From assembly GCF_050920415.1 (NCBI RefSeq), contig NZ_CP169309.1: a stretch of 64,000 bases of DNA; one strand, given 5' to 3'. The position numbers were made by a program, and so were the translations under genes. Numbering within the stretch: position 1 is the first letter of the stretch; every line of letters begins with the position of its first letter. Positions 19,232 through 51,477 of the stretch are shown here, piece by piece. A model generated the notes under the pieces. It saw nothing but the letters and a program-made list of their open reading frames with translations. It was not told the origin of the DNA and did no database searches. Origin of the DNA: Escherichia coli (GTDB lineage: Bacteria; Pseudomonadota; Gammaproteobacteria; Enterobacterales; Enterobacteriaceae).

Positions 19232-20559
19232 GCCAGTTTCAGATCCCGGGTCATGTTTTCCACGTTGTTTTCGTGGATCACCACGTTGTCTTCGATACGA
19301 ATGCCGCCGAACGGTTTCAGTGCTTCAATTTTCTGCCAATTGAAGTGTTTGCTGAACTGCCCTTCACGCCACGGTGCCAGCAGCGATTCGATGAAGTAGA
19401 TACCCGGTTCGATGGTTAAGACCATGCCCGGCTGGAGAATACGGGTGCAGCGCAGGTACGGATATTTTGCCGGTGCCGCGAGGTGCGTACCGCTATCATC
19501 CTGCATAAAACCGGCCACGTCATGCACCTGCAGGCCCAGCGGATGGCCGATACCGTGCGGCATAAACGGTCCGGTAAGATCATTTTCGACCATCGCCTCT
19601 TCACTCATATCGGTGATGATTTGATGTTTACGCAGCAGTTTGGCGATACGCTGATGGAACTGGATGTGGTAATCCACATAGCTGACGCCTGCTTTCATGG
19701 TAGCGATCAGCGCCAGTTGTTCATCATTTACGTCTTTCACCAGCTGTGCGTAGTCGTTGTCGCTTTTTGCCGACCAGGTACGGGTCAAGTCAGCCGCATA
19801 GCCGTTATATTCTGCCCCGGCATCCAGCAGGAAGCTGCGCATCTCTTCCGGAGCCTGATGGTCCAGTTTGGTGTAATGCAGTACCGCAGCATGTTCGTTG
19901 AGCGCCACAATGTTGCTGTAAGGCACGTCGGTATCACGATGACCGGTCGCGGTCAGATAGGCAATGTTGATATCGAACTCGCTCATGCCAGAACGGAACG
20001 CTTCTTCTGCCGCGCGATGACCGTTGACCGCCATTTTCTGCGCTTCACGCATACAGGCCAGTTCGTACTCGGTTTTGAAGGAGCGGTAGTAATGCAGGTA
20101 GTCGATCACCCCTTTCGGGTTGATATTGCTGGCCTCAATACCCAGTTGCAGCGCACGTTCCGGCACCGGGCCGATATACCCGATATTGCCGCGCGCAGCT
20201 GGCAACAGGCTACCAATGCCATCGGCTTTCGGCAGCGCAATTACTTCCACGTCCTCAGTCCAGAAGGAGGTCGGCAGTGGTTCGACGTTGTGCCAGTAAT
20301 CAACCGGCAGATAAAACCACAGTTTCGGCTTGTTCACGCCATCTACCAGCAACCAGCAGTTTGGCACCTGGGTTACCGGCACCCACGCTTTGAATTGCGG
20401 GTTCACTTTAAAAGGATAGGGATGATCGTCGAGAAAAACGTTGAACAGTTCGCCGGAGTGAATAAGTAACGCATCCAGTTTGAAGCGCGCCAGCGCATCG
20501 CGAGTCCGTTCCTGTAAGGTAGCTATATGATTTTTATAGAGCGAGGCCAGTGATTCCAT
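19228..20559 (-). CDS. pepQ: Xaa-Pro dipeptidase (prolidase)
   Basis: 443 aa M24-family metallopeptidase; divergent from fadB. Confidence 0.9.
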
Positions 20560-20705
20560 TTTTTACCCTTCTGTTTTTTGACCTTAAGTCTCCGCATCTT
20601 AGCACAACGTTAATACAGAGCGTGATTTCTGCCGAGCGTGATCAGATTGGCATTTCTTTAATCTTTTATTTGCATATTTTTAACACAAAATACACACTTC
20701 GTTTC

Positions 20706-20722
20706 ATCTGGTACGACCAGAT
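20706..20722. promoter_or_regulatory. FadR operator in the fadBA promoter
   Basis: ATCTGGTACGACCAGAT dyad about 25 bp upstream of the fadB start, matching the FadR box pattern. Confidence 0.6.
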
Positions 20723-20747
20723 CACCTTGCGGATTCAGGAGACTGAC

Positions 20748-22937
20748 ATGCTTTACAAAGGCGACACCCTGTACCTTGACTGGCTGGAAGATGGCATTGC
20801 CGAACTGGTATTTGATGCCCCAGGTTCAGTTAATAAACTCGACACTGCGACCGTCGCCAGCCTCGGCGAGGCCATCGGCGTGCTGGAACAGCAATCAGAT
20901 TTAAAAGGGCTGCTGCTGCGTTCGAATAAAGCAGCCTTTATCGTCGGTGCTGATATCACCGAATTCTTGTCCCTGTTCCTCGTTCCTGAAGAACAGTTAA
21001 GCCAGTGGCTGCATTTTGCCAATAGCGTGTTTAATCGCCTGGAAGATCTGCCGGTGCCGACCATTGCTGCCGTCAACGGCTATGCGCTGGGCGGTGGCTG
21101 CGAATGTGTGCTGGCGACCGATTATCGTCTGGCGACGCCAGATCTGCGCATCGGTCTGCCGGAAACCAAACTGGGCATCATGCCGGGCTTTGGCGGTTCT
21201 GTACGTATGCCACGTATGCTCGGTGCTGATAGTGCGCTGGAAATCATTGCCGCCGGTAAAGATGTCGGCGCGGATCAGGCGCTGAAAATCGGTCTGGTGG
21301 ATGGCGTAGTCAAAGCAGAAAAACTGGTTGAAGGCGCGAAGGCAATTTTACGTCAGGCCATTAACGGCGACCTCGACTGGAAAGCGAAACGTCAGCCGAA
21401 GCTGGAACCGCTAAAACTGAGCAAGATTGAAGCCACCATGAGCTTCACCATCGCTAAAGGAATGGTCGCACAAACAGCAGGGAAACATTACCCCGCACCC
21501 ATCACCGCAGTAAAAACCATTGAAGCTGCGGCCCGTTTTGGTCGTGAAGAAGCCTTAAACCTGGAAAACAAAAGTTTTGTCCCGCTGGCGCATACCAACG
21601 AAGCTCGCGCACTGGTCGGCATTTTCCTTAACGATCAATATGTAAAAGGTAAAGCGAAGAAACTCACCAAAGATGTTGAAACCCCGAAACAGGCCGCTGT
21701 GCTGGGCGCAGGCATTATGGGCGGCGGCATCGCTTACCAGTCTGCGTGGAAAGGCGTGCCGGTTGTCATGAAAGATATCAACGACAAGTCGTTAACCCTC
21801 GGCATGACCGAAGCCGCGAAACTGCTGAACAAGCAGCTTGAGCGCGGCAAGATCGACGGTCTGAAACTGGCTGGCGTGATCTCCACGATTCATCCAACGC
21901 TCGACTACGCCGGGTTTGATCGCGTGGACGTTGTGGTAGAAGCGGTTGTCGAAAACCCGAAAGTGAAAAAAGCCGTGCTGGCAGAAACCGAGCAGAAAGT
22001 ACGCCCGGATACCGTGCTGGCTTCCAATACTTCAACCATTCCTATCAGCGAACTGGCCAACGCGCTGGAACGCCCGGAAAACTTCTGCGGGATGCATTTC
22101 TTTAACCCAGTGCACCGGATGCCGTTGGTGGAAATTATTCGCGGTGAGAAAAGCTCCGACGAAACCATCGCGAAAGTTGTCGCATGGGCGAGCAAGATGG
22201 GTAAAACGCCAATTGTGGTTAATGACTGCCCCGGCTTCTTTGTTAACCGCGTGCTGTTCCCCTATTTCGCCGGTTTCAGCCAGCTGCTGCGCGACGGCGC
22301 GGATTTTCGCAAGATCGACAAAGTGATGGAAAAACAGTTCGGCTGGCCGATGGGTCCGGCATACTTGCTGGATGTCGTGGGCATTGATACCGCGCATCAC
22401 GCCCAGGCAGTGATGGCAGCAGGTTTCCCGCAGCGGATGCAGAAAGATTATCGCGATGCCATCGACGCACTGTTTGATGCCAAGCGTTTTGGTCAGAAGA
22501 ACGGCCTCGGTTTCTGGCGTTATAAAGAAGACAGCAAAGGTAAGCCGAAGAAAGAAGAAGATGCCGCCGTTGACGACCTGCTGGCAGAAGTCAGCCAGCC
22601 GAAGCGCGATTTCAGCGAAGAAGAGATTATCGCCCGCATGATGATCCCGATGGTCAACGAAGTGGTGCGCTGTCTGGAAGAAGGCATTATCGCCACTCCG
22701 GCAGAAGCGGATATGGCGCTGGTCTACGGCCTGGGCTTCCCTCCGTTCCACGGCGGCGCGTTCCGCTGGCTGGACACCCTCGGTAGCGCAAAATACCTCG
22801 ATATGGCACAACAATATCAGCACCTCGGCCCGCTGTATGAAGTGCCGGAAGGTCTGCGTAATAAAGCGCGTCATAACGAACCGTACTATCCCCCGGTTGA
22901 GCCAGCCCGTCCGGTTGGCGACCTGAAAACGGCTTAA
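20748..22937 (+). CDS. fadB: Fatty acid oxidation complex alpha subunit (start at internal MLYKGD Met; track ORF 20550.. is an extension)
   Basis: 729 aa; enoyl-CoA hydratase N-domain plus 3-hydroxyacyl-CoA dehydrogenase; RBS aggag before the ATG at 20748. Confidence 0.95.
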
Positions 22938-45333: not shown

Positions 45334-47595
45334 TCATCCCCGACGCAAATTCTGCGCCGCCTGCACCATGTTCGCCAGTGCCGCGCGGGTTTCTGGCCAG
45401 CCGCGCGTTTTCAGGCCACAGTCCGGGTTGACCCACAGACGCTCTGCCGGAATGCGTTGTGCCGCTTTCTTCAGCAGGGACTCAATCCATTCCACGCTCG
45501 GTACGTTTGGCGAGTGAATGTCATAGACGCCAGGACCGATTTCATTCGGATAATCAAACTCTTCAAACGACTCCAGCAACTCCATGTCGGAACGCGAGGT
45601 TTCGATTGTGATGACGTCAGCATCCAGCGCCGCAATCGAATCCATGATGTCGTTGAACTCGCAGTAACACATGTGAGTGTGGATTTGCGTGTCATCTTTC
45701 GCTACGGCAGCGTTGATACGGAAAGCCTCCACGCCCCACTGGAGATAGGCATCCCAGTCGCTGCGACGCAGCGGTAAACCTTCGCGTAGCGCCGGTTCAT
45801 CAATCTGGATGATGCCAATTCCAGCGGCTTCCAGATCGGCCACTTCATCACGAAGCGCCAGCGCAATTTGTTTGGCGATGGTTTCACGGCTGACATCTTC
45901 ACGCGGGAACGACCAGCAGAGAATGGTCACCGGGCCAGTCAGCATCCCTTTCACCGGTTTATCAGTCAGAGATTGCGCATACTTCGCCCACTCCACGGTA
46001 ATCGGTGCCGGGCGGCTAACGTCACCAATAACAATCGGTGGCTTCACGCAGCGGGAACCGTAGCTCTGTACCCAACCGTTTTGCGTAAAGACAAAGCCAT
46101 CCAGGTGCTCGCCAAAGTATTCCACCATGTCATTACGCTCGGCCTCACCATGCACCAGCACATCCAGACCCAGACGTTCCTGCTCAACAATGGCCTGCTT
46201 GATATGTTCTGCAATGCCCGTGCGGTAGTTGTTGGCGTCGAGATTACCCTTTTTGAAATCCAGACGCAGGGTACGGATTTCTGTGGTTTGCGGGAAAGAG
46301 CCAATCGTGGTGGTCGGCCAGGCTGGCAGTTTAAAACGCGCACGCTGGGCTTCAGCACGCACTTCATAAACGTTCGCACGCTGGCTGTCCTGGGCTGTGA
46401 TCGCTGCCAGACGTTTTTCTACCGCCGGATTATGGACGCGGGTTGAGTGACGACGCGCCTGAATCGGAGCGCTCCACTCTGCCAGAGCTGCCGTGTCACC
46501 ACTGTTCAACGCATCGCGCAGCAGCGCCAGTTCATGGCATTTTTGCAGGGCGAAGGCAAACCAGCTTTTCACTTCCGCATCAAGACGCGTTTCCACACTC
46601 AGGTCGATAGGGCTGTGCAGCAATGAGCAGGAAGATGCCACCCACAAATCACGTTTGCCGACAATGTCCTTAATTTGCGCATATTTCTCGGTAAGATCGG
46701 CGCGCCAGACGTTACGACCATTGATAAGACCCGCAGACAGCAGCCAGTCAGAAGGCAGACGCTTGTGCAGTTCAGCAACGTCATCTTTACCATGTACGAG
46801 ATCGACATGCAGCCCCTGAACAGGCAGCGCAGTAATGGTGTCGAGGTTTGGCGTTACGCCTTCAAAATAGGTGGTCAGCAGCAGTTTCACCTGGCCCTGG
46901 AGCGCGTCGTAAGCGGGTTTATAGGCGTCCAGCCACGCCTGCGGCAGTTCCAGTACCAGAGCCGGTTCGTCGATCTGTACCCACTCAATGCCGCGTTTTG
47001 CCAGTTCTGCCAACACTTGCTGATAAACCGGCAGAATGTCGTTTAGCAGGCTCAGGCGATCAAACTGTTCACCTTTCACTTTACCCAGCCACAGGTAGGT
47101 AACCGGCCCCAGCAGCACGGGCTTGACCTTGTGGCCCAGCGCCAGCGCCTCGTCCACTTCCTCCAGCAGTTGCGTCCAGGTCAGTTTGAACTGTTGGCCT
47201 TTAACGAACTCCGGCACCATGTAGTGATAGTTGGTGTTAAACCATTTGGTCATTTCCGCTGCCGCCGCAGGTTCACCAGTCGGTGCACGTCCACGACCAA
47301 TACGGAACAGGGTGTCGATATCTACCGAACCATCTTTGTTCTGGTGACGCGCCGGAACGTTACCCAGCAGCAGGCTGGTGGTCAGGACATGATCGTACCA
47401 GGCAAAATCGCCCACCGGCAGCAGGTCGATACCTGCTTGCTTTTGTTGATCCCAGTGACGGGCACGTAATTCACGCCCAACCGCCAGCAGTTCTTCACGC
47501 GTGGAGTTCCCCGCCCAATAACTCTCTTGCGCTTTTTTCAGCTCGCGACGCAGGCCAACGCGAGGGAAACCGAGGGTGTGATTCAATATTGTCAT
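45334..47595 (-). CDS. metE: Cobalamin-independent methionine synthase
   Basis: 753 aa; N-terminus [29 protein letters not shown] matches MetE. Confidence 0.97.
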
Positions 47596-47747
47596 TTTTC
47601 TTCCTCTAATTATATGTAAATCCTATGGATTTTGAATTTAGGGAAGGCGGCAAGTTTATTCATCCCCGGGAGCTTACTGAAGTAAGTGACCGGGGTGAAG
47701 AAACGCAGCCAACGCACCATAAATTTAAAAGACGAAGGATTTTAGCC

Positions 47748-47770
47748 GTCCAGATGTTTACACATCCATA
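47748..47770. promoter_or_regulatory. Candidate MetJ-box-like repeats in the metE-metR divergent control region
   Basis: cagatgtttacacatcca resembles degenerate tandem AGACGTCT boxes; exact sites uncertain. Confidence 0.3.
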
Positions 47771-47830
47771 ATTGGCGGTTACTGTATATTCCTCAAGCGC
47801 AAATTATTCATGCCGAAGTGAAGGACTTTC

Positions 47831-48784
47831 ATGATCGAAGTAAAACACCTGAAAACGCTACAAGCGTTGCGGAACTGCGGCTCACTCGCAGCCGCTGCGG
47901 CGACGTTGCATCAAACGCAATCCGCCCTGTCTCACCAGTTTAGCGATCTGGAACAACGCCTTGGCTTCCGGCTATTTGTGCGTAAAAGCCAGCCGCTTCG
48001 GTTTACACCGCAGGGAGAAATCCTGTTGCAACTGGCGAATCAGGTGCTGCCGCAAATCAGCCAGGCACTGCAAGCCTGCAATGAACCGCAGCAGACGCGC
48101 CTGCGCATTGCCATTGAGTGCCATAGCTGTATTCAGTGGCTGACGCCCGCGTTAGAAAATTTCCATAAGAACTGGCCGCAGGTGGAGATGGATTTTAAAT
48201 CGGGCGTGACGTTTGACCCGCAGCCCGCGTTGCAGCAGGGTGAGCTGGATCTGGTGATGACCTCCGATATTCTGCCGCGCAGTGGCCTGCATTATTCGCC
48301 GATGTTCGATTATGAAGTGCGTCTGGTGTTAGCGCCTGACCATCCACTGGCGGCGAAAACGCGAATCACGCCGGAAGACCTCGCCAGCGAAACGCTGTTG
48401 ATTTATCCGGTGCAGCGTAGCCGACTGGATGTCTGGCGGCATTTTCTTCAGCCCGCAGGCGTTAGCCCGTCACTGAAAAGCGTCGATAACACCTTGTTGT
48501 TGATTCAGATGGTTGCCGCACGGATGGGCATCGCTGCGCTACCGCACTGGGTGGTGGAGAGTTTTGAACGCCAGGGTCTGGTGGTCACCAAAACCTTGGG
48601 CGAAGGCTTGTGGAGCCGACTGTACGCCGCCGTGCGCGATGGCGAGCAGCGTCAGCCGATTACAGAAGCGTTTATTCGTTCAGCGCGCAATCACGCCTGC
48701 GATCATCTGCCGTTTGTGAAGAGCGCGGAGCGACCCACTTACGATGCACCCACAGTGAGGCCAGGATCACCAGCGCGCCTGTAA
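47831..48784 (+). CDS. metR: LysR-family transcriptional activator MetR
   Basis: 317 aa with an N-terminal LysR HTH; divergent from metE. Confidence 0.95.
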
Positions 48785-49571
48785 TAAACGTTGGCCAGTG
48801 CGGCTGTTGGTGCCAGATAGCCAGGTTAACCAGCAGCCCTGCCGGAACGTGCATATTATTCATAATGCCCAGCGTTCCGGCGTCCACCTGCGTCGCGCCG
48901 TAGTTCCACATAAAGTAGCCAATTCCGGAGGCCACCACGCCAAGAAACACCAGAATGCCCCATTGCAGCGTGGTTTGCGGCATTTTCTGCGCATTTCCCA
49001 GCAAAAACCATGCAATCACTGCCACCAGAAACGCGCCAAGATAGAACCACGCAAAGGCGTTATGCTGTGGCATCGGACGAGTTTCCATCAGGCGTTTGTA
49101 ACCCACCATGCCGATGGCAAAAGTGATATTGGAGAGTTGCACCAGCAGCAGGCCAGTCCAGAAGTGGTCGGTGACCTGATCATAGCGAATAATCCCGGCA
49201 CCAATCACCGCCAACAAGGCGCTAAAAGCATAGCCCCAGCGCAGACGGCGCTTACTCATGATGTCATAAATCAGCGTGATGTAGAGCGGAGTCAGTACGG
49301 TGAACAGCAACAGCTCGGAGACCGTCAGGTAGAGATAGGCGCGAAAACTCAGCATATACATCACGCCAAGCTGCATCGCGCCCACCAGCATATACAGGCC
49401 AACCGTTTTCAGGCTATTGCCACGGGTACGCAGAAACGGCAGAAACACGAGTGCCGCCAGGCCAACGCGCACCAGCACTGCAAAATAGCTATCGACGTGC
49501 CCCGCAAGGTACTCGCCATAAAAGCTAAAGGAGAAGGCCCACAGAATCGTGGTGATGATAAGTAGCGCCAC
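48672..49571 (-). CDS. yigM: DMT/EamA-family transporter YigM (biotin transporter BioP)
   Basis: 299 aa ten-TM EamA-type protein; its 3' end overlaps the metR 3' end. Confidence 0.85.
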
Positions 49572-49646
49572 AATGGAAAACTCTTTGATTAACGAGTATC
49601 CATTGTAGCGAAGTATCAGGTTGACAACTGACCAAATAAAGAACGA

Positions 49647-50447
49647 TTACGATAAATAGAGTTTACGCAGATAATGCGGCACTGCATCCTCGGCGTTAGT
49701 ACCAATCACTTCCAGCTCCGGATGCAGATCTTTCAGACGCTGGTGCGCACTGCCCATAATGCAGCCTTTACCTGCCATCGACAGCATTTCGGCGTCGTTC
49801 ATCCCGTCACCAAAGGCAATACAATCTTTCAGACTGTAGCCCAGTTTCTTCGCCACCGCTTCCAGGGCATGGCCTTTTGAAACGCCGCCCGCCATCACTT
49901 CCAGACAAGTTAGGGTAGAGAAACTGACGTTGACGCGATCGCCCCAACGAGCGTTGATTGCCTGCTCCAGCGGCAGCAGTTGTTCATGAGAATCACAGGT
50001 GAAGAACACTTTGCTGACGCCTTCCGGATCCAGTAATCCTGGCTCATACAGCGCATATTTGAACACCGCTTCTTTAAAAAAGCGCATCTCTTCCGGGCGG
50101 TGGCGATTCATAAACCATTCGTCGTCGCGATAAACGTTAGTAATGATGTCCGGGTTGTCGTTGACCACGCCAAACAGATCGCTGGCAATGTCGCGATCCA
50201 GGTTATGAGCAAAAATCAGATTGCCATCCAGATCGTGAACGCGCGCGCCATTGGAGGTAATCATGTAAGACTTAATCTCCAGATTATCGCGAATTTGCCC
50301 CACATCAACGTGGTGGCGACCGGTCGCAAACACAAAGTTAATGCCGCGCGCGGTGAGCAGCTTCAGAGTTTCTTTGGCGTAAGGGGATAACGTATGGTCG
50401 GGAGAAAGTAACGTGCCATCTAAATCAGACGCAACAACCTGGTACAT
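49647..50447 (-). CDS. yigL: HAD-family Cof-like sugar phosphatase YigL (start at MYQVVASDLDGTLL)
   Basis: DxDGTL HAD motif I; 266 aa. Confidence 0.85.
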   Translation of the reverse strand: MYQVVASDLDGTLLSPDHTLSPYAKETLKLLTARGINFVFATGRHHVDVGQIRDNLEIKSYMITSNGARVHDLDGNLIFAHNLDRDIASDLFGVVNDNPDIITNVYRDDEWFMNRHRPEEMRFFKEAVFKYALYEPGLLDPEGVSKVFFTCDSHEQLLPLEQAINARWGDRVNVSFSTLTCLEVMAGGVSKGHALEAVAKKLGYSLKDCIAFGDGMNDAEMLSMAGKGCIMGSAHQRLKDLHPELEVIGTNAEDAVPHYLRKLYLS

Positions 50448-50454
50448 AAGAAAT

Positions 50455-51477
50455 TTAAACCTCTGTAGAGCGGTTTCCGCTGGGTGAGTTATGCCTGTTG
50501 AAAAAATCAACAATGGCGTGGAGCGCGACTGAGCGCATTGCGTCCTTTTCAAAAAGGATCTCATGGTACGCACCTTTAATTACCAGCGGTCGTCCTCCTT
50601 CGACAGGATGGCCCGCAGCGGTGCGGAGTTCACAAAAACGGTCGTGCATGCGGTTATCCACCACGCGTTCCTCTTCAGCCTGCAAGAGAAGCGTTGGCGT
50701 AGCGTCATCACCCGCTCCGGCTAACACCTGTTCGCCAGCCAGAATACTTTCGCGTACCCAATGGTAGGTCGGCCCACCGACGCGAATCGTTGGGTCATCA
50801 GCATAAAAGCGTAAGTTACGTCGATATCGCTGTCTGCTGTGGGTCAGTACGTTGATAGCAAACGGCAACGCGCGCCAGCGCCCGGTGCCTATTGCATAGC
50901 CATCACGGAAACGTGGATGTGCTTCGGCCCAGTTAAGGATCTGCCGCGCCATAAATGACGGCATACGAATCACGATCCCAAACATTGGTGCAGTTAGCGC
51001 AATGGCGTCACATACACCTGGATGGCGTTGCAGAAATAACGTGGAGATCGCACCGCCCATCGAATGTGCCAGTATATAGCGCTTACGCCACGGACCGGGC
51101 TGGACCTCCTGTTGCCAGAATGCCGCCAGATCATCAACATAATCATTAAAGCGATTAACATGCCCAAGATGCGGATCGGCTAACAGGCGACCGGAACGTC
51201 CCTGCCCGCGATGGTCGATGATTAAGACATCAAACCCCAAATGGAACAGGTCGTAGGCCAGTTCCGCATATTTTACGTAGCTCTCAATACGCCCCGGGCA
51301 GATGACTATCACCCGGTCATGGTGCTGCGCGCGAAAACGGACAAAGCGCACCGGAATGTCATCCACACCAGTAAATTCTGCTTCATCACGCTGACGCCAG
51401 AAATCAGTCAGCGGTCCCATGGTAAAAGCAGCAAACGCGTTTTCTCTTGTTTCCCAGTCTTTTTGCTGCTGAAACAT
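50455..51477 (-). CDS. pldB: Lysophospholipase L2
   Basis: 340 aa alpha/beta hydrolase with a GHSMGG nucleophile motif. Confidence 0.9.
   Translation of the reverse strand: MFQQQKDWETRENAFAAFTMGPLTDFWRQRDEAEFTGVDDIPVRFVRFRAQHHDRVIVICPGRIESYVKYAELAYDLFHLGFDVLIIDHRGQGRSGRLLADPHLGHVNRFNDYVDDLAAFWQQEVQPGPWRKRYILAHSMGGAISTLFLQRHPGVCDAIALTAPMFGIVIRMPSFMARQILNWAEAHPRFRDGYAIGTGRWRALPFAINVLTHSRQRYRRNLRFYADDPTIRVGGPTYHWVRESILAGEQVLAGAGDDATPTLLLQAEEERVVDNRMHDRFCELRTAAGHPVEGGRPLVIKGAYHEILFEKDAMRSVALHAIVDFFNRHNSPSGNRSTEV

Follow-up and report, generated by a model that had tools for sequence, protein, structure and literature searches.

The convergent genes metR and bioP (yigM) of Escherichia coli share 113 bp at their 3′ ends. 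Our analysis indicates that this is very probably a genuine, old and annotated tail-to-tail overlap of two unrelated genes, in which the functional ends of both proteins abut, the run-on tails are loosely constrained, the geometry is frozen and transcription is terminated by Rho. We studied the arrangement in a stretch of 64,000 nucleotides from contig NZ_CP169309.1 (RefSeq assembly GCF_050920415.1), referred to below as the window. Here, metR occupies positions 47831–48784 of the plus strand and bioP positions 48672–49571 of the minus strand; the segment that carries both convergent 3′ ends, 48672–48784, follows from the list of open reading frames (ORFs) and from the raw sequence.

Family models, published genetics and a solved structure of E. 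coli MetR show that both are real protein-coding genes. The metR ORF, annotated in RefSeq, has an ATG start and encodes a LysR-type regulator of methionine biosynthesis with 317 residues. This protein matches the NCBIfam equivalog NF011950 over residues 1–317 of 317 (741 bits; cutoff 382), contains the Pfam domains HTH_1 (residues 5–63) and LysR_substrate (residues 86–288), and has structural matches in the Protein Data Bank (PDB) entries 5fo5, the DNA-binding domain of E. coli MetR, and 4ab5. The bioP ORF has a GTG start and encodes a 10-helix biotin transporter of the EamA/DMT type with 299 residues, which RefSeq annotates as “bioP: biotin transporter”. It matches TIGR00950 (310 bits; cutoff 230) and also Pfam EamA, and its function was assigned by genetics (PMC5120140; PMC4049904). 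The same two coding sequences are annotated in E. coli MFDS1022581 (NZ_CP169399.1), which is 100% identical, and both genes were annotated in every sampled match among 5,425 complete E. coli genomes. The stop positions given in the original prediction (metR 48784, bioP/yigM 48672) agree with the ORF list and with the RefSeq annotation of the identical strain. Its expectation that the overlap also exists in K-12 is confirmed by the reference annotation of MG1655 (NC_000913.3), which places bioP at 4011076–4011975 (+) and metR at 4011863–4012816 (−) with the same 113 bp in common. Between the window and K-12, the overlap differs by one nucleotide, while the surrounding 2.2 kb are about 3.5% diverged.

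Some observations on the strain and the neighboring genes are recorded here in their own right. In comparisons with two probes (20000–22200 and 47600–49800), the window is 100% identical to MFDS1022581 and about 96.5% identical to almost all other complete genomes of the set. Only two to four genomes are at least 99% identical to it, which points to a divergent lineage filed as E. coli. In E. coli Z135-6 (NZ_CP159632.1), the match falls into two pieces, and metR is represented by a “hypothetical protein” and a “LysR family transcriptional regulator”; metR is probably disrupted in this genome, and the 3′ end of bioP would be affected too. For yigL (49647–50573, minus strand), the longest ORF encodes 308 residues from a GTG start 126 nt upstream of the annotated start of the 266-residue protein, a commonplace discrepancy between a longest ORF and the start codon actually used.

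The overlap is conserved across the Enterobacteriaceae, well beyond E. coli, as had been expected. A species scan with BioP, using one genome per GTDB species, yielded 80 Enterobacteriaceae loci with BioP identities of 81–99%, from genera that include Escherichia, Salmonella, Citrobacter, Klebsiella, Enterobacter, Kosakonia, Raoultella, Siccibacter and Trabulsiella. At each of the 80 loci, metR is convergent to bioP, and the starts of the two genes lie exactly 1741 bp apart, with zero indels. The coding sequences overlap by 113 bp in 70 species, by 116 bp in seven, by 98 bp in two and by 68 bp in one. Together with the window, these loci provide 81 sequences, in which MetR has 317 residues in 72 cases, 318 in seven and 312 in two, and BioP has 299 residues in 80 cases and 284 in one. 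The stop codon of bioP (TAA, 48672–48674, minus strand) is made from the MetR codons F281 (TTT) and I282 (ATT) and is invariant in 81/81 sequences. metR ends in tandem stops (TAA TAA, 48782–48787, plus strand); the seven species without the first stop use the second TAA, which results in a MetR of 318 residues and an overlap of 116 bp.

A protein homologue search returned only close BioP relatives (at least 82% identity), truncated forms among them. A search of cluster representatives added a distant BioP with 57% identity, whose contig contains the 1741 bp block, a metR with 88% identity, metE and an overlap of 98 bp. Two BioP homologues of about 51% identity are located elsewhere and do not adjoin metR, which shows that the arrangement has a phylogenetic limit. 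Among the retrieved contigs, CACSKA010000013.1, titled “Chryseobacterium sp. 18061”, carries a typical Enterobacteriaceae bioP–metR block (83% and 92% amino-acid identity to the window, respectively) and is probably contaminated or mislabelled. By chance, the length of the overlap is unsurprising: reading through antisense metR, the bioP frame meets a stop at about 3% of its codons, the metR frame in antisense bioP at about 6.5%, and by our own calculation the chance of stop-free runs of 22 and 15 codons beyond the conserved ends is roughly 0.4–0.5 each. The conservation of the stops and of the block is beyond chance.

The two reading frames are arranged such that the first codon positions of metR and bioP face each other, metR position 2 faces bioP position 3, and metR position 3 faces bioP position 2, so that a third-position change that is silent in one gene alters a second position in its partner. 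In the 81 sequences, entropies outside the overlap are about 0.95–1.03 at third positions and 0.09–0.12 at second positions; averaged over the full overlap, both classes of codon position are intermediate (0.43 and 0.51). Resolved per site, the variable codon position switches sharply at about 48737/48738. In the zone 48738–48784, the constrained protein is BioP, with residues 263–278 in the C-terminal half of its last membrane helix, and residues 303–317 of MetR and the metR stop are passengers. bioP third positions have an entropy of 1.07 here and second positions of 0.25 (Mann–Whitney p=1e-4), and MetR residues 303–317 are 55% identical across species compared with 94% for the remainder of the protein. 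Some MetR sites in this zone take all four second-position bases, for example residue 303 (N/T/S/I) and residue 306 (A/V/G/E), which is the expectation for passive reading of four-fold degenerate BioP sites.

The roles are reversed in the zone 48675–48724, where MetR residues 282–298, the end of the folded regulatory domain, are constrained and BioP residues 283–299 are mostly passengers. Over 48675–48737, metR third positions have an entropy of 0.58 and second positions of 0.10 (p=1e-4). MetR residues 281–302, which end in …[RK][SN]AERP across species, are 94.5% identical, BioP residues 278–299 only 72%, and the substitutions in the BioP tail (R/H, D/G, R/K/T and G/D) are images of synonymous changes in metR. 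Between the two zones lies a junction of about 13 nt (48725–48737), in which MetR A299-E300-R301-P302 is encoded opposite BioP W279-V280-A281-P282. All three codon positions are nearly invariant here in the 81 sequences, and MetR 299, 301 and 302 and BioP 281–282 show no synonymous diversity at all. Both frames are thus constrained only at about 48725–48737 and at a few scattered sites; elsewhere, either BioP (48738–48784) or MetR (48675–48724) is constrained.

For each gene, we also set the synonymous third-position diversity against the value expected from how the same amino acids vary in the rest of that gene. BioP residues 263–277 have a diversity of 1.01, against an expected 1.08 (P=0.26), whereas MetR residues 281–302 have a diversity of 0.55, against an expected 1.00, a reduction of about 45% (P<2e-4). 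The MetR tail therefore imposes no measurable selection on the DNA, while some selection does come from the BioP tail, the stop codon of bioP and the junction. The cost of the overlap falls on one side, on metR 281–302 and not on bioP 263–277. The original prediction that the overlap constrains both genes is correct in outline, but the constraint is not spread evenly: it is split by zone, with about 13 nt fixed in both frames.

Structural data are consistent with this division. The crystal structure of the Neisseria meningitidis MetR regulatory domain (4ab5) aligns to MetR residues 87–296, and its chain ends six residues later, at about residue 302. An AlphaFold2 model of MetR, built from a shallow alignment of 36 sequences, had a mean pLDDT of 41 and was set aside; the probable end of the MetR fold was placed by homology and conservation only. 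For BioP, a model based on 121 diverse sequences reached a mean pLDDT of 89.9. Its last helix is predicted to start at residue 259, and pLDDT is about 85 up to residue 280, 67 for residues 281–290 and 52 for residues 291–299. Alignments with distant BioP homologues stop at about residues 270–285. Natural BioP variants of 284 and 285 residues, which form clusters of 42 and 66 sequences that include Salmonella and which occur in Salmonella serovars and in a gut Enterobacteriaceae isolate, end right after the motif WVAP[RH]S(A); they lack the last 14–15 residues, and the overlap is reduced to about 68–71 bp. MetR variants of 312 residues occur in three lineages. We infer that the tails are dispensable.

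A few tail residues are more conserved than pure passengers would be. BioP E299 is invariant, with MetR I282 encoded by ATT in 81/81 sequences. MetR D305 is retained, with BioP H276 encoded by CAT in 80/81, and MetR P311 is retained as well. MetR S313 is likewise retained, with BioP V268 encoded by GTG in 78/81 sequences, where GTT or GTC would give a stop in MetR. In view of E299 in BioP and of D305, P311 and S313 in MetR, the tails may carry some minor function.

Termination of the two transcripts was analyzed with terminator scans, RNA folding and published data. A scan of 47500–49900 for intrinsic terminators found none for metR or bioP; the sole terminator-like site, at 48385–48397, lies inside metR and is at chance level (one found, 2.9 expected). 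metR-sense RNA from 48740–48900 folds better than its shuffles (z = −2.8), and the folding of bioP-sense RNA after the stop is unremarkable (z = −1.1). A hairpin at 48841–48882 inside bioP, formed by the inverted repeat CCGGAACG...CGTTCCGG, was rejected as an RNA structure: its pairs are conserved only at codon positions 1 and 2, without compensatory change in 82 sequences, and it is a coding by-product of A-G-T…V-P-A-G codons. No conserved RNA structure was detected at the overlap, with no compensatory pairs in the alignment fold of the 82 sequences, and an Rfam search gave no match in or near the overlap.

Published data identify a factor-dependent terminator on at least one strand. Supplementary file 2 of Adams et al. 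2021 (eLife, PMC7815308) lists a Rho termination region internal to yigM with the best coordinate K-12 4011704 (+), a Rho score of 5.07 and p=1.3e-12. Without bicyclomycin, coverage drops from 98 in the upstream 800 nt to 21 in the downstream 800 nt, whereas with bicyclomycin it changes from 300 to 326. The coordinate corresponds to 48943 (−) in the window, 271 nt upstream of the bioP stop, a position that is coarse given the 800-nt windows. The entries of Adams et al. 2021 (PMC7815308) contain no Rho region on the metR-sense strand and, across three growth conditions, no discrete term-seq 3′ ends for metR or bioP. Just past the bioP stop, the bioP-sense RNA (48500–48671, minus strand) contains a C-rich and G-poor candidate rut-like stretch, with a plus-strand GC skew of +0.18 (top 3% of windows of the same size). 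The metR-sense RNA contains a similar candidate 70–270 nt past the metR stop (48850–49050, plus strand), with a GC skew of −0.23 (lowest 3.5% of windows of the same size). The excess of C over G after both stops would fit Rho loading (rut) sites; it is suggestive only, and both sites are putative. The earlier statement that the genes lack intervening terminators thus holds for intrinsic terminators and conserved hairpins, but not for Rho, as the published Rho-dependent region on the bioP-sense strand shows.

Two further signals were noted in the metE–metR spacer. At 47621–47739 (+), the Rfam family V_AS5, a Vibrio antisense RNA, matches over the full model length below threshold (28.7 bits, with a gathering score of 96; E=0.002); this match may merely mirror conserved promoter or operator sequence. 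In addition, Adams et al. 2021 (PMC7815308) report a term-seq 3′ end at K-12 4012988 (+), corresponding to about 47659 (−), 65 nt upstream of the metE ORF, which could derive from an attenuated metE leader transcript.

These results suggest a scenario in which MetR and BioP reach their functional ends, at about residues 302 and 282 respectively, directly next to each other on the DNA, with zero spacer. Each frame would continue through the antisense of its partner's conserved end to the next chance stop, a run-on that would add a tail of 15 residues to MetR and of about 17–22 residues to BioP. Most substitutions in the overlap leave the constrained partner unchanged and alter an amino acid of the tail. 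Because substitutions are mostly silent in the constrained partner, true dual-coding constraint is limited to the junction of about 13 nt and a few scattered sites, and because any indel frameshifts the conserved C-terminal end of at least one protein, the arrangement looks frozen. In such a hand-over, two disposable tails would absorb most of the cost, and the true double constraint would amount to about a dozen bases. The layout would leave no room for an intrinsic terminator; Rho most likely ends each transcript after the ribosome leaves at the stop, which would also keep long antisense read-through low. We infer both that Rho terminates the metR transcript and how the overlap arose.

Genetic work on the two genes has already touched on the overlap, which is known from the K-12 annotation and was remarked on by Cote et al. 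2016 (PMC5120140). Ringlstetter and Finkenwirth et al. had earlier identified YigM as the biotin transporter. Cote et al. 2016 show that the metR deletion of the Keio collection behaves like a deletion of yigM: it is synthetic lethal with bioA, and in rich medium it increases sensitivity to a BioA inhibitor; they ascribe this phenocopy to concomitant disruption of yigM (PMC5120140). The phenocopy could result from loss of the last BioP helix or, equally, from the kanamycin cassette transcribing into bioP. The Keio metR mutant acts as a biotin-transport mutant (PMC5120140). Any deletion or insertion that falls in the 3′ part of one gene also affects its partner, and knockout phenotypes need clean alleles. 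Conversely, a bioH yigM::Km double mutant that carries the yigM allele of the Keio collection is able to grow on biotin-containing mineral salts medium (PMC4049904); if no methionine was added, this growth bears on the dispensability of the MetR C-terminus.

An annotation artefact, in which a sequencing error, a frameshift or the recent loss of a stop has lengthened one ORF at its 3′ end while the true proteins do not overlap, has next to no probability. It could draw on the Pfam domains, which end at MetR residue 288 and BioP residue 275, before much of the overlap, and on the finding of Palleja et al. 2008 that most annotated overlaps longer than 60 bp are erroneous (PMC2478687). However, the stops are identically placed in 70 of the 80 species within an indel-free block, which effectively refutes misannotation, and no earlier in-frame stop occurs except in rare natural variants. 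The MetR equivalog model also spans residues 1–317, the 94.5% conserved segment 281–302 is homologous to a solved structure up to residue 296, the last BioP helix reaches into the overlap, and deletion of metR breaks bioP function. A convergent overlap of more than 100 bp can therefore be real and stable within a family, and annotation pipelines that flag long overlaps as errors are wrong here. That the whole 113 bp is truly dual-coding is unlikely. Under this explanation, both tails would be functional, for example through a D-x-P-T-x-x-P-x-S-P motif in MetR and, in BioP, a basic cytoplasmic tail with a terminal Glu, and selected throughout. The above-expectation conservation of BioP E299, R291 and R293 and of MetR D305, P311 and S313 speaks for it, as do the 45% lower synonymous diversity of metR opposite the BioP tail and the finding that, within E. 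coli, the DNA around the overlap is more conserved than its flanks. Yet opposite the MetR tail, bioP keeps the same synonymous freedom as elsewhere in the gene (P=0.26), the MetR tail is only 55% identical, MetR of 312 and BioP of 284 or 285 residues exist in nature, and several “conserved” tail residues are forced by partner codons, such as MetR P307 by BioP W274.

Interference between the metR and bioP transcription units, which the original prediction took the overlap to imply, would be plausible in principle. S-adenosylmethionine links the methionine and biotin pathways, as biotin synthesis consumes S-adenosylmethionine. The overlap might serve as a regulatory device in which convergent transcription, through polymerase collisions or antisense RNA cleaved by RNase III, couples metR and biotin uptake. 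The two genes lack a separating intrinsic terminator, their geometry is rigidly conserved, and a preprint by Wang et al. describes RNA polymerase collisions that can drive termination at convergent pairs. Frameshift avoidance explains the conserved geometry more simply, however, and Rho-dependent termination on the bioP-sense strand limits antisense read-through. Moreover, the collision model of that preprint requires a stem–loop, whereas no conserved RNA structure is present at the overlap, and the BioP homologues of about 51% identity are not beside metR. A search for expression data linking metR and bioP found none. Taken together, a regulatory role of this kind is decidedly improbable. Still more specific, and very improbable indeed, is a coupling device in which metR transcription, itself under autoregulation and responding to homocysteine and methionine, lowers or sets the expression of bioP by collision or antisense RNA, with BioP E299 and MetR D305, P311 and S313 acting as functional short motifs; if true, it would link the supply of S-adenosylmethionine to biotin uptake.

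We thus return to abutting functional ends with loosely constrained tails as the preferred reading. By the standards of overlapping genes, the metR/bioP overlap is ordinary and leaves current understanding unchanged; our contribution is to show that the arrangement is rigid throughout the family and that a zoned pattern of selection explains how it is tolerated. The K-12 pair (b3828/b3827) has the same genes, the same 113 bp and the same phase, and nothing substantial sets it apart from the overlap in the window, even though the window belongs to a lineage that differs from typical E. coli by about 3.5%. Rogozin et al in 2002 reportedly described long convergent overlaps that are conserved in prokaryotes, and bidirectional intrinsic terminators between convergent genes are said to have been described by Ju et al in 2019 and are also a subject of the Wang et al. 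preprint. metR and bioP resemble the gene pairs with such terminators in being convergent and in needing two-way termination within a very short space, but they lack the GC-rich hairpin with U and A tracts or a conserved stem–loop, and the data point to Rho instead. In the survey of Palleja et al. 2008, the convergent orientation was the sole one in which long overlaps were judged possibly real (PMC2478687). The metR/bioP overlap shares with the long convergent overlaps of that survey the tail-to-tail arrangement, a length above 60 bp and well-characterised genes; unlike them, it is conserved family-wide and down to 57% BioP identity. The same 2008 study contains an enterobacterial overlap that, like metR/bioP, is conserved throughout the Enterobacteria and varies little in its nucleotides; its genes are co-directional and share 32–56 bp, whereas metR and bioP are convergent and share 113 bp.
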